Positions 35,532 to 41,013 are shown, counted from the first letter of the stretch. The stretch: 64,000 nucleotides of DNA from an uncultured archaeon (GCA_964486045.1 CAZALK010000011.1:112526-176525); one strand, 5' to 3'. Made by a program: numbers and translations. Notes: generated by a model not told the origin, from the sequence alone.

Positions 35532-35894
35532 TTATTTATCATTTTGTAAAGATTTATTATGAGCCCATTTCATTAAAGGTATCATAGCATCTCTAACTTC
35601 GATTCCATCCTGAGTTAGCGAGTATTCCACTTTTGGAGGTATTTCGGGAAAGAGCTCTCTCTTTATTAAGCCTGCTTCATTCAACTTTTTTAATCTATCT
35701 GAAAGGGCTTTTGGGCTTATACCTTTAATATCTTTTAAAAGTTCATTAAACCTTAACTTATCATAATTACTGATTGTGCCAATAATCACTAATGCCCATT
35801 TTTTACTAATGACATTAATAATTCCTTCTACCGGGCAAAAACAAAAGCCCTCTTCTCCCGTATTTTTACAACGAATCCCAGTAACCTTTTTAAT
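35532..35894 (-). CDS. HxlR-family winged-helix regulator with Cys-rich N-terminus
   Basis: ISPKALSDRLKKL...PPKVEYSLT; frame extends upstream of GTG 35789 through CKNTGEEGFCFCPVEGIINVISKKW to ATT 35894, 6 nt after GGTGA. Confidence 0.85.
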   Translation of the reverse strand: MKKVTGIRCKNTGEEGFCFCPVEGIINVISKKWALVIIGTISNYDKLRFNELLKDIKGISPKALSDRLKKLNEAGLIKRELFPEIPPKVEYSLTQDGIEVRDAMIPLMKWAHNKSLQNDK

Positions 35895-36000
35895 ACTATC
35901 TCACCATTTTACTACTTACTATACAATTTAATACTGGACAATTTAAATACTTTATTATCTATATCTACTATAAAAACTAAAGTATTGAAGGTGATAAAAA

Positions 36001-36150
36001 ATGCTCGAGGAATCTCATCTCATAAAGAAAGTCGAAATTCAACCAGAACAAAATGCTTGTTCTTGTGGTTGTACGGGTCAAGAAAATGAAAATTTTGAAG
36101 AAACTAAACAAAAACTAGTTAGTCAGTCCCAAAATGAATCAAAGAAATAA
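36001..36150 (+). CDS. 49-aa peptide with a CSCGC motif (putative metal-binding), not in ORF track
   Basis: MLEESHLIKKVEIQPEQNACSCGCTGQENENFEETKQKLVSQSQNESKK*, preceded by a GAAGGTGA SD-like site. Confidence 0.65.
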   Translation: MLEESHLIKKVEIQPEQNACSCGCTGQENENFEETKQKLVSQSQNESKK

Positions 36151-36161
36151 GTTGTAATTAT

Positions 36162-36428
36162 ATGTTAATTTTAAAACATGTCGAATATGAAATACCTGAT
36201 CTTAATCAATTGAATCTACTATTAGAACATATAAATCAAATATCTTCTAAAATTGAAGGGATTTCATTTACTGACATTTTTTTTTCTAAAAATGGGAAGG
36301 AATTTGTTCTTCTGTTAGAATCTGAAAGTGAAGAAGTTTATCTTAATTGGAGAAAAATATGTCCTCCTCCATCTGGTACTAGAGATTGGTATGACGTATA
36401 TTTGTCTAAAAAAGAAAGTTTCTCTTAA
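36162..36428 (+). CDS. Hypothetical 88-aa protein co-oriented with the CSCGC peptide
   Basis: ATG ORF 11 nt after the peptide stop. Confidence 0.65.
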   Translation: MLILKHVEYEIPDLNQLNLLLEHINQISSKIEGISFTDIFFSKNGKEFVLLLESESEEVYLNWRKICPPPSGTRDWYDVYLSKKESFS

Positions 36429-38468: not shown

Positions 38469-38550
38469 CTTTATCTATTTTACATCAGATAAGATATAGA
38501 TAAAGTGTATAATGAGAATTTTACCAAATTTAAAATCAAGGTAGTTTAAA

Positions 38551-38778
38551 ATTAAACCAAGAAAAATAAAATTCACCGCGAAAAATAAGGCAATTCATTG
38601 TAAATCTTGCAAAGCGCGTATTGAGACAGTATTAAAAAATGAACCAGGTATAATAAGTATCAAAGCGGATTATAAAACTCAGAATGTAGATTTGCTTTTT
38701 GATGAGGAAATAATCACAATACAAGTTATAAAAACAATAATAGAAGATTTGGGATTTCCTATCAAAAAATTGGGTTAA
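38551..38778 (+). CDS. Stand-alone HMA-domain metallochaperone (CopZ/MerP-like), not in ORF track
   Basis: IKPRKIKFTAKNKAIHCKSCKARIETVLKNEPGIISIKADYKTQNVDLLFDEEIITIQVIKTIIEDLGFPIKKLG*; no ATG/GTG/TTG before the CxxC, apparent ATT start. Confidence 0.8.
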   Translation: MKPRKIKFTAKNKAIHCKSCKARIETVLKNEPGIISIKADYKTQNVDLLFDEEIITIQVIKTIIEDLGFPIKKLG

Positions 38779-38805
38779 AAATTTTAGGATGATAATCGAG
38801 GCTTC

Positions 38806-41013
38806 ATGCTAATGAACAATTCACTCGAGAAAATTCTATTAAAAATTGGAGGTATGCAATGTTCCTTTTGCACTCATTCGATTAAACAAGCTCTTAATCG
38901 CCTAAATGGTGTTCATAAGGTTGGAGTAAGTTTAGCACATGAAGAAGCTCTAATTCAATATGAGCCTTATTTAACCAGCCCTCTTGAAATAAAAGATACA
39001 CTTAGGGATTTAGGTTTTAAAATTAGAGATCCCAATAAACTCTATAGTTTTGATGAGGAAGAACAAGAATTACGCAAGGAAAGGAATCGTTTGTTCATAG
39101 CGACCACTGCGACATTAATCTCATTGGTGTTCATGGTTTTTATGTGGTTGGGGTTAAGAAATCTGTTAGTGCCTTGGATAATGTTTTTATTAGCAATTTT
39201 TACAATGTTTATCCCCGGTTGGTATATTAAACTAATGGCATGGGCATCTTTAAAAAGATTTATACTAAACCAACATGTCTTATTAGAATTTGCAGCATTT
39301 GGAGGTTTAATAGGGGGAATTTATGGGATTTTTGTTAGGAATTGGCCAATAGCAGATTTTTTTGCTGTTTGTGTGTTTGTAACTAGTTATCATATTCTTT
39401 CTGGGTACGTTTCTTTGTTTGTAAGAACAAGATCTTCCCAGGCTATTAAAAAGTTAATGGAGTTACAACCTGAAACAGCTCGAATTATAAAAAGAGATGA
39501 TACTGAAGAAGAAATTTTAGTTGAATTGGTTAAAAAGGGAGATAAAGTAAGAATTCGCTCAGGAGAAAGAATTCCTGTGGACGGTATTGTAATTAGTGGT
39601 ATGTCCTCAGTGGATCAAAGCCTTGTGACGGGAGAATCTTTCCCAGTCGAGAAAATAAAAGGAGATACTGTAATAGGGGGATCGTTAAATCTTCAAGGGT
39701 TGTTGTTAATTGAAGTAACTAAAGTCGGGAAAGATTCTTTCCTTCAACAAATCTCTCAACACATTCAGGAAGCACGAGCTCTCAAACCAGGAATCGCGAT
39801 TATAATTGATTACGTACTAAAATATTTCGTTAAAATCGTACTTTTCGCGGCAATTCTCGCTTTTTTTATTTGGACAGTTGGGTTTTGGTTATTTACAGGA
39901 GAATTTAATTTCGAAAAAGCAATATTTGCAACATTATCAGTTCTAGTAATGGGTTACCCTTGCGCTTTAGGAATGGCTACTCCTTTAGCAATTATCCGAG
40001 GCGGTGGTATTGCGGCTCAAAAAGGTATTCTAATGCGTTCTGGAGAAGCTTTTCAGGTGTTTAAAGATATTAGTAAAATCATTTTTGATAAAACAGGCAC
40101 CTTGACTATAGGAAGACCTCAAATCGTTAAAATTATACCAGTTAAACCTTATAGTAAAGAAGAACTTATTTCTGTAACAGCAAGTATTGAAGCTGGATCA
40201 AACCATCCTTTAGCAAAAGCTATTGTTGAATACGCTAACTCTAATGATATCCCTTTTCAAGAAGTCCTTGATTTTCAAGAAATTACAGGTCTAGGAGTTA
40301 AAGGGACTATAGATAATAAAAATATACTTGTGGGAAACACGCGTTTTATTGAAGGTAAAGGGATAATAAATGAAAAATTCGAGAAACAGCGGATTGAATT
40401 AGAGAACCAAGGTTTTACAATAATTAATATAGTAGAAAAAGAAAAAATTATTGGGGTTATTGCTATCGGAGATACATTAAAAGAGGATGCTAAAAAAACT
40501 ATAGGTTTACTCAAACAACTTGAGATTGAGCCAACAATTATTACTGGTGATAATTGGCGTGTAGCGAAAGTTATTGCAAAAGAATTAGGTATTAACAACA
40601 TATTAGCAGAGGTATTACCTCAAGAAAAAGCAAAAAAAATAAGAGATCTTCAATCTCAAGGAGATAGAGTGGCAATGGTCGGGGATGGAACTAATGATGC
40701 TCCAGCACTAATGCAAGCTGATATTGGGATTGCCATTGGTGCAGGTACAGATATTGCTATAGAATCTGCTGATATTATTTTAATTAATAATCAATTAAAA
40801 GGAATCATAGATGCTTACCATATAGGAAAATCTAGTTATTCAAAAACTGTTCAAAATATTATCATGGCTTTTTCATTTAATGCAATTGGGGTACTTACTG
40901 GTATTCTTGGGTTAGTTCACCCGATATGGGCTATGATAGCCATGGCATTGAGTGTTACAACCGTCTTGTTAAACTCTTTTGCGGGAAAATTTTTTTTTAA
41001 AAAAAACAATTGA
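38806..41013 (+). CDS. copA: Heavy-metal P1B-type ATPase (CopA-like)
   Basis: GMQCSFC HMA, TGES, CPC equivalent YPCALG, DKTGT, HP, GDGTNDAP. Confidence 0.85.
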   Translation: MLMNNSLEKILLKIGGMQCSFCTHSIKQALNRLNGVHKVGVSLAHEEALIQYEPYLTSPLEIKDTLRDLGFKIRDPNKLYSFDEEEQELRKERNRLFIATTATLISLVFMVFMWLGLRNLLVPWIMFLLAIFTMFIPGWYIKLMAWASLKRFILNQHVLLEFAAFGGLIGGIYGIFVRNWPIADFFAVCVFVTSYHILSGYVSLFVRTRSSQAIKKLMELQPETARIIKRDDTEEEILVELVKKGDKVRIRSGERIPVDGIVISGMSSVDQSLVTGESFPVEKIKGDTVIGGSLNLQGLLLIEVTKVGKDSFLQQISQHIQEARALKPGIAIIIDYVLKYFVKIVLFAAILAFFIWTVGFWLFTGEFNFEKAIFATLSVLVMGYPCALGMATPLAIIRGGGIAAQKGILMRSGEAFQVFKDISKIIFDKTGTLTIGRPQIVKIIPVKPYSKEELISVTASIEAGSNHPLAKAIVEYANSNDIPFQEVLDFQEITGLGVKGTIDNKNILVGNTRFIEGKGIINEKFEKQRIELENQGFTIINIVEKEKIIGVIAIGDTLKEDAKKTIGLLKQLEIEPTIITGDNWRVAKVIAKELGINNILAEVLPQEKAKKIRDLQSQGDRVAMVGDGTNDAPALMQADIGIAIGAGTDIAIESADIILINNQLKGIIDAYHIGKSSYSKTVQNIIMAFSFNAIGVLTGILGLVHPIWAMIAMALSVTTVLLNSFAGKFFFKKNN

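Follow-up and report, generated by a model that had tools for sequence, protein, structure and literature searches.

Positions 35532-41013 of a 64,000-nucleotide stretch of DNA from an uncultured archaeon (contig C11:112526-176525, CAZALK010000011.1 of assembly GCA_964486045.1; the whole stretch is hereafter 'the window') hold a variant mercury resistance (mer) system, in which a carrier protein predicted to contain four selenocysteine (Sec, U) residues, a P1B-type ATPase without the canonical CPC motif and an HxlR-type regulator accompany the mercuric reductase MerA on an inserted segment. Judged from sequence, and with a probability of about 0.68, this island would provide accessory resistance to soft metals, chiefly mercury, through a pair of modules repeatedly found together in archaea. 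The source genome (5.18 Mb, 99% complete, 7.8% contamination, ~31% GC) has close relatives among metagenome-assembled genomes (MAGs) that bear the label Promethearchaeota and so belong to the Loki-type Asgard archaea. Every gene named for this interval in a first-pass annotation of the bare sequence was recovered by translation of open reading frames (ORFs) and by Pfam and NCBIfam scans, including the three small genes that it gave as absent from the ORF track; standard gene callers miss three of the genes because of TGA codons and probable ATT starts. The features of the cluster are as follows.

35532..35894, minus strand: HxlR-family winged helix-turn-helix (wHTH) protein, probable ATT start; PF01638, 79.9 bits (cut-off 20.8), E = 1.3e-22
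36001..36150, plus strand: 49-aa CSCGC (CxCGC) peptide, divergent from the HxlR gene; GGTGAT Shine-Dalgarno (SD) motif, 5 nt, then ATG
36162..36428, plus strand: conserved small protein of 88 aa, probable passenger; no family match, 86 homologues
36659..36868, plus strand: predicted four-Sec protein of the GDCCVxC family (U25, U47, U49, U59), 69 codons; NF041374
36879..36915, plus strand: eukaryote-like Sec insertion sequence (SECIS) with AUGA, 8-bp stem, A-rich loop and 3' (A)AGA; covariation
36916..36931, plus strand: second hairpin, CGAGA-N6-UCUCG, directly after the SECIS; at most of 27 loci
37065..38468, plus strand: core mercuric reductase MerA without an NmerA domain, ending in SCCIE; TIGR02053
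38551..38778, plus strand: free HMA metallochaperone (IHCKSC), probable ATT start; PF00403, 47.1 bits (cut-off 24.8), E = 3.3e-12
38806..41013, plus strand: P1B-type ATPase of the GYPC subfamily with an N-terminal HMA domain (GMQCSFC); TIGR01525

A predicted four-selenocysteine protein

With U read as C, the product of 36659-36868 scores 48 bits against the NF041374 model (cut-off 40), compared with 34.8 bits when its TGA codons are scored as stops. These codons stand in frame at positions 25, 47, 49 and 59, identically in loci L009-L012, and four TGAs at matching codons with no other stops occur in about 26 Lokiarchaeales genomes (19 of 134 in family f1, 6 of 14 in f3). The single-contig genomes G135, G138 and G143 also carry a four-TGA homologue. 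U25, U49 and U59 fall on invariant cysteines of Cys-only homologues, such as those scoring 72-95 bits in Asgard families f13, f16 and f18, and U47 is shifted by one residue. The cysteines of the CPxCG...CxxC zinc ribbon all remain Cys, Sec being confined to the second Cys cluster, and it is there that the protein departs from the motif that gives the family its name: GUNUVLC stands in place of GDCCVFC (D to U, first C to N, second C to U), a variant retained in every four-Sec member. An AF2 model (U as C, 46-sequence alignment; pLDDT 87) predicts a four-strand zinc ribbon followed by two C-terminal helices, for which Foldseek returned weak zinc-ribbon matches (E ~1).

The SECIS begins in the 3' untranslated region (UTR), ten nucleotides past the stop codon, and matches in type the eukaryote-like elements described for Lokiarchaeota (PMC4989117). 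Its stem is 93.5% paired across 21 loci, with compensatory changes in seven of the eight pairs, a level attained by none of 500 shuffles and far from the 35-59% of slid controls. A covariance model built from these loci and run on the archaeon's own genome picked out two VhuD/FrhD-type genes at their 3' ends, each containing in-frame TGA, together with a further TGA-TGA gene; Rfam, searched across the region in gathering and E-value modes, returned no SECIS and no other RNA family. The hairpin that follows differs in sequence by lineage and may replace SECIS helix 1. The genes for tRNA-Sec and SepSecS lie together on contig C15, and TGA closes 341 of 2027 long frames in the genome, so that it is otherwise an ordinary stop. 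Because the in-frame TGA codons are conserved and align with Cys, the SECIS covaries, its model finds other Sec genes and the Sec machinery is encoded, 36659-36868 is predicted, on sequence evidence, to be read through as a selenoprotein with four Sec. Genome-wide recoding of TGA as tryptophan was rejected, given those 341 terminations and the alignment of the TGA sites with Cys; public gene calls that place W at these sites (P0002-P0008) are code-4 artefacts. An independent contig of 20.9 kb from a second sample spans 35294-43000 with 25 substitutions and no indels, none of the listed differences falling in the Sec ORF, and its agreement shows that the ATT codons at the putative starts and the in-frame TGA codons are real and no assembly error.

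NF041374 corresponds to 'Hypothetical protein GOS_B' of the GOS selenoproteome (PMC2398784), to which a 2026 review gives one Sec (PMC13188914), and is not among the seven selenoprotein families reported for Asgard archaea (PMC11227280). In bacteria, where its context was taken from annotated plasmids, the GDCCVxC domain is found fused to MerC (P0090, P0118), as a free gene after merR-merT-merP (Acidovorax plasmid) and as a free gene after a MerT-family gene beside a P-type ATPase (Bradyrhizobium plasmid). This placement behind merT and merP, or within a MerC fusion, makes an NmerA- or MerP-like role plausible for the Sec protein. The first-pass annotation had proposed such a replacement for the small Cys- and Sec-containing proteins of the island collectively; it stays plausible for this one and does not extend to the 88-aa ORF, a probable passenger, or to the CxCGC peptide, which tracks the regulator.

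Some further Sec-related elements were noted alongside. At L053 and L054 (7839-8192, minus strand) the Sec frame has no TAA or TAG, and its earliest stop is the UGA inside the AUGA of the SECIS core. A candidate new selenoprotein family of ~100-170 aa, without a Pfam or NCBIfam match, carries two adjacent in-frame TGA codons (C/D-U-U; once U-G-U-U) and was seen upstream of G000:C25 39038-39114 (L114) and at L050:1801, L051:6843 and 7490, L058:1880 and 2488, and L066:2059; each gene precedes a SECIS of the same type, and several relatives place such a gene, or a tandem of them, immediately before the four-Sec gene. An orphan SECIS-like element at G000:C16:46316-46392 (L112; 74 bits with model R1), with no intact TGA ORF upstream, is possibly the remnant of a second Sec-gene copy.

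A core mercuric reductase

The flavoprotein downstream of the Sec gene scores 534 bits against TIGR02053 (equivalog cut-off 454.45), falls below the cut-off of the lipoamide dehydrogenase model (399.5 against 408.8) and lies far under those of the RclA and hypothiocyanous-acid reductase models. In a PDB search MerA structures reached 340 and 337 bits, and the best dihydrolipoamide dehydrogenase 252. Its best solved relatives are the enzymes of Lysinibacillus (5x1y) and Metallosphaera (4ywo), with which the CVNVGC pair aligns, within the redox-active CxxxxC segment GGTCVNVGCVP near the N-terminus, as does the terminal CC, the C-terminal ISCCIE falling on the SCC of both structures. The first-pass annotation had called this gene merA and named clustering with dihydrolipoamide dehydrogenases as the outcome that would overturn the call; the sub-cut-off lipoamide dehydrogenase score and the better match to MerA structures led us to reject that identity, and the call holds. 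All Asgard MerAs examined terminate in a CC pair, and those outside this cluster either consist of the core alone, with an end such as MSCCVE, or have NmerA fused to them as an HMA domain, forms that fit, without proving it, a Sec protein standing in for NmerA.

The remainder of a classical mer operon is missing, as had been proposed: neither MerT nor MerC was found in the whole genome, no ORF scanned in the island matched the MerR family, and the HMA protein scores under the MerP cut-off, so the MerR regulator and MerT/MerC/MerP uptake set are not represented. One MerB-family gene lies elsewhere in the genome (C9:181513). A catalogue-level report of 2025 credits Asgardarchaeota MAGs with merA and those of Lokiarchaeota with merB (PMC12484752).

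The chaperone and the GYPC-type pump

The free HMA protein has IHCKSC rather than GMTCxxC as its CxxC metal site and is under the CopZ as well as the MerP equivalog cut-off. Orthologues at L012 and L013 share 59-66% identity and the same TTT-AAA-ATT-AAA-CCA start region, with a stop codon two codons upstream of the ATT.

The ATPase that follows is a secure P1B-type pump (TIGR01525, 560 bits against 346; DKTGT site; Pfam matches to E1-E2_ATPase, Hydrolase and HMA) which passes the copper-type TIGR01511 cut-off and reaches only 449 of the 1316 bits set for the CopA equivalog. The ligands expected of a CopA-type Cu(I) pump are replaced. Canonical CopA-type pumps encoded at neighbouring loci show CPC, YN and MxxSS in transmembrane segments (TM) 4, 5 and 6, compared with GYPCALGMATP, AFxFN and AMxxSV here (MALSV in the window), and these are invariant in all 20 or more members examined, membership being set at no less than 50% identity. 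Of 400 Asgard genomes, 22 encode such a GYPC ATPase, and plasmids from Deinococcus, Leisingera and many haloarchaea carry it too; its gene usually follows one for an HMA protein and is flanked by HxlR homologues at L103, L104 and L106. The P1B signature motifs listed in the literature are CPC, CPH, SPC and PCP, with YPC not included (PMC4932525); the GYPC group may equal the uncharacterised P1B-6 or P1B-7.

The regulator and its small neighbours

The HxlR-family protein carries three cysteines at its N-terminus, spaced C-x8-C-F-C-P, and is likely, from this arrangement, to be a metal- or thiol-responsive regulator. Neither its gene nor that of the HMA protein has an ATG, GTG or TTG upstream of the conserved domain; each has an SD-like GGTGA(G) or GGTAG followed after 5 nt by ATT (35892-35894 and 38551-38553), and the HxlR genes at L009 and in G205 retain the GGTGAG, spacing and ATT. 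Initiation at AUU is thus probable for both.

The divergent 49-aa peptide recurs beside HxlR elsewhere, as SCVCGC in L009 and CSCCC in G205 (where ATA replaces ATG), and diverges fast outside its Cys motif (~55% amino acid against 81% nucleotide identity with G205); it goes with HxlR and not with the mer genes. The 88-aa ORF is a genuine gene but probably a passenger. Its homologues include bacterial proteins, one of them named 'GYD domain', and another Promethearchaeota MAG encodes one at 76% identity, yet none lies next to any of the other MerA loci examined, and we rejected it as a mer component.

Recurrence of the gene association

Of 400 Asgard genomes, 27 encode a MerA above cut-off, as do four of the other 53 in the window's genus, which makes merA a patchy accessory gene. 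Within family f1, all eight MerA-positive genomes (G000, G183, G194, G216, G229, G150, G162, G264) have a four-TGA gene directly upstream, decayed in G194. MerA is found in 13 of the 22 GYPC ATPase carriers (59%) against 27 of 400 genomes (7%) overall, a contrast that relatedness inflates; the two genes are adjacent in families f1, f15 and f31 (G000, G194, G229, G320, G051) and share a contig in G324 and G397. The survey of merA surroundings suggested at the outset thus bears out the association, in that the Sec-MerA pair is kept in f1 and MerA, ATPase, HMA protein and HxlR recur together.

At L009/L070, L063 and L067 the order is HxlR, a thioredoxin-like CxxC protein, the Sec protein, a wHTH-MerB-family protein and MerA. 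The fourth of these (L070:2785-3642; also L063 and L067), lying between the Sec gene and merA, is a fusion of a LexA/MarR-like wHTH to a MerB-family domain (PF03243, 69.7 bits); among NCBIfam models it comes closest to the MerB-like lyase SaoL, and it stays under both the MerB and SaoL cut-offs.

The association also reaches beyond Asgard archaea. On the Halobaculum roseum plasmid NZ_CP082289 (133.6-138.7 kb), an HxlR-like gene (CDVEGTCYCP; 41% identity to the window's regulator, E = 1e-33) diverges from a core merA ending in SCCIE, followed by a GYPC ATPase (50% identity to that of the window) and an HMA gene. The module had been taken for an Asgard one; the same HxlR-MerA-ATPase-HMA set on a haloarchaeal plasmid shows that clusters of this type are borne on mobile DNA and are not confined to Asgard archaea.

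Mechanism and competing explanations

From these identities we infer a route by which mercury would be captured, handed over and removed. As the genome search turned up neither MerT nor MerC, uptake of Hg(II) probably does not rely on a dedicated importer. In the first module, the predicted Sec protein with the core MerA, Hg(II) would be captured by a selenolate/thiolate cluster of U25, U47, U49, C52 and U59, the CPxC...CxxC ribbon staying all-Cys, and passed first to MerA's pair of C-terminal cysteines and then to its CVNVGC redox pair, where NAD(P)H would reduce it to volatile Hg(0). The second module, the HMA chaperone with the GYPC-type ATPase, would export a thiophilic metal ion, for which Hg(II) and Cu(I)/Ag(I) are the candidates. 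A more ambitious version is a distinct archaeal mercury system, common to Asgard archaea and haloarchaeal plasmids, in which four-Sec proteins draw Hg(II) away from the thiols of the cell through Hg-Se chemistry and supply MerA, GYPC pumps serve only to export Hg(II) or Hg-thiolate, and metal sensing by CxnCxCP HxlR proteins would be the first in their family; it strikes us as doubtful when taken as a whole.

A number of observations weigh against the mercury reading. For some 18 four-Sec genes a MerA is missing from the surrounding 8 kb or as far as the contig reaches, and the Cys-only GDCCVxC forms of other Asgard classes are set among housekeeping genes, with no mer neighbours found, so that pairing with MerA is not the small protein's only setting. 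Mercury binds selenium more strongly than sulfur, and release of the metal to the cysteines of MerA may for that reason be unfavourable. The best solved relatives of the ATPase are Cu(I) pumps, G205 retains HxlR and the peptide where the mer genes are absent, and the window's SECIS reads UAAGA at the site where UGAGA stands in most loci, giving a core of A.A instead of A.G, although the UAAGA variant is also found in two other species with intact genes (L061, L065). The MerA-less four-Sec genes would suit a redox pair in which the MerA-like flavoenzyme reduces the Sec protein, cycling it between selenol and diselenide or selenenylsulfide in defence against oxidants or electrophiles, with HxlR sensing thiol oxidation in the manner of HypR and YodB. 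Redox sensing is established in the HxlR family, the regulator's best NCBIfam matches are the redox regulators RrpA and RrpB (both under cut-off), and some relatives place the thioredoxin-like protein just upstream. This is nonetheless quite improbable in our estimate: the enzyme passes the MerA equivalog threshold, scores far too low as RclA or hypothiocyanous-acid reductase and retains the CC pair typical of Hg(II) reductases, relatives interpose a MerB-family gene between the Sec gene and merA, and the bacterial GDCCVxC family sits in merTP operons.

It is likewise unlikely, if less so, that the two modules are uncoupled neighbours brought together by chance, a CopZ/CopA-type copper efflux pair under HxlR beside an independent MerA pair. 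The copper-type score and Cu(I)-pump structures noted above agree with such an arrangement, as do the nine of 22 ATPase carrier genomes in which no MerA was found and the MerA loci without an ATPase (L009, L010, L011); set against them are the subfamily-invariant replacement of the Cu(I) ligands (CPC to YPC, YN to FN, MxxSS to MALSV), the co-occurrence with MerA above background, and adjacency both on a haloarchaeal plasmid and in Asgard archaea of three families. A frame that is decayed or untranslated, leaving MerA to suffice alone, might be read from the deviating SECIS core and from one orthologue (L013/L090) that has decayed, carrying TAA and TAG stops, but it is made very improbable by the retention of all four TGA positions, in frames otherwise free of stops, across about 26 genomes, and by the Sec/Cys correspondence, SECIS covariation and an identical Sec ORF in an independent sample. 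The reading of the island as a two-module mercury resistance system is the one we prefer.

Relation to known systems

With the bacterial mer operon the island shares a MerA with CxxxxC and C-terminal CC, a small Cys-rich metal carrier (cytosolic or periplasmic), a divergent regulator, a location on accessory DNA and, in the island's relatives, a MerB-family gene. It differs in lacking MerR, MerT and MerC, in its HxlR-type regulator, in a MerA without NmerA, in the predicted four-Sec GDCCVxC carrier and in the attachment of a P1B ATPase and HMA chaperone. The merRHAI cluster of Sulfolobus/Saccharolobus resembles it in having an archaeal core MerA without NmerA after a small Cys-rich chaperone gene, under a non-MerR regulator; there, however, the chaperone MerH has a TRASH domain, regulation is by an ArsR-like protein, and neither Sec nor an ATPase is known. 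The Halobaculum cluster shares the CxnCxCP HxlR-like regulator, SCCIE core MerA, GYPC ATPase and HMA protein, and differs in having no GDCCVxC/Sec gene, no CxCGC peptide and an extra wHTH gene; the literature on it yielded annotation and no characterisation.

Its separate parts also have known counterparts. NF041374/GOS_B proteins share the CPxCG...C...CxxC...C-rich tail arrangement, the family at fold level and a mercury-gene neighbourhood in bacteria; they have one Sec or none where the island protein would have four, and differ from its GUNUVLC motif, and the bacterial SECIS is in-frame rather than eukaryote-like and in the 3' UTR. The P1B-1 pump CopA with its chaperone CopZ, the closest structural relative, shares the N-terminal HMA domain, DKTGT and a partner HMA chaperone; the island pump differs in TM4 (YPC for CPC), TM5 (FN for YN) and TM6 (MxxSV for MxxSS) and in co-occurring with MerA. 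Literature searches returned nothing on the operon layout, an HxlR-merA link, GYPC/YPC P1B pumps or GDCCVxC by name.

If this interpretation is right, a protein with four Sec in 69 residues would join an Asgard selenoproteome of seven published families, in a family (GOS_B) listed with one; a selenium-based step of Hg capture in marine-sediment archaea is suggested, and both a pump subfamily and a regulator type would have gone unrecorded by current merA-centred surveys. With three of its genes missed by gene callers, the island further implies that mer-type clusters in Asgard MAGs are under-annotated.

Insertion site and borders

The island had been suspected of being acquired, and the block does prove to be an insertion that a relative of the same genus, G180, lacks. 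The features around the cluster are the following.

33940..42899, no strand: accessory insert (~9 kb) from nreA to the small-GTPase gene; absent from same-genus G180
34347..34720, minus strand: chimeric nreA remnant (5' end and promoter region); direct repeats D1-D3 against intact nreA
34817..35482, plus strand: vapBC-type pair, MazE/AbrB-type antitoxin and PIN toxin; PF04014 (1.8e-13), PF01850 (1.1e-16)
41171..42743, plus strand: two genes (217 aa and 220 aa), further cargo; within the segment missing from G180

In G180 (L119) only 83 bp separate the counterparts of window 32500-33929 (nreA) and 42900-44246 (the GTPase gene). The same site holds ~1.9 kb in G205, consisting of one 344-aa ORF, HxlR and a CxCxC peptide and nothing else, and ~3 kb with three unrelated genes in G187. 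As size and cargo differ among these genomes, the gap between nreA and the small-GTPase gene (window 33930-42900 compared with L119, L120 and L121) is a variable hotspot and 33940-42899 an insertion. No GC deviation distinguishes the island from flanking DNA, the 217-aa and 220-aa genes have no significant Pfam or NCBIfam match, and in the other mer-carrying genomes of the genus the mer genes and nreA are on separate contigs.

The neighbouring vapBC pair and nreA duplication noted in the first-pass annotation were both confirmed. The PIN toxin is preceded by a small antitoxin at a spacing of 3 nt. The nreA remnant marks the left border of the island: compared with intact nreA (32499-33945), repeats D1, D2 and D3 show 71%, 97% and 73% identity, the duplicated 5' part comprising 34347-34450 (97% identical to 33172-33275) and 34450-34612 (71% identical to 33669-33831).

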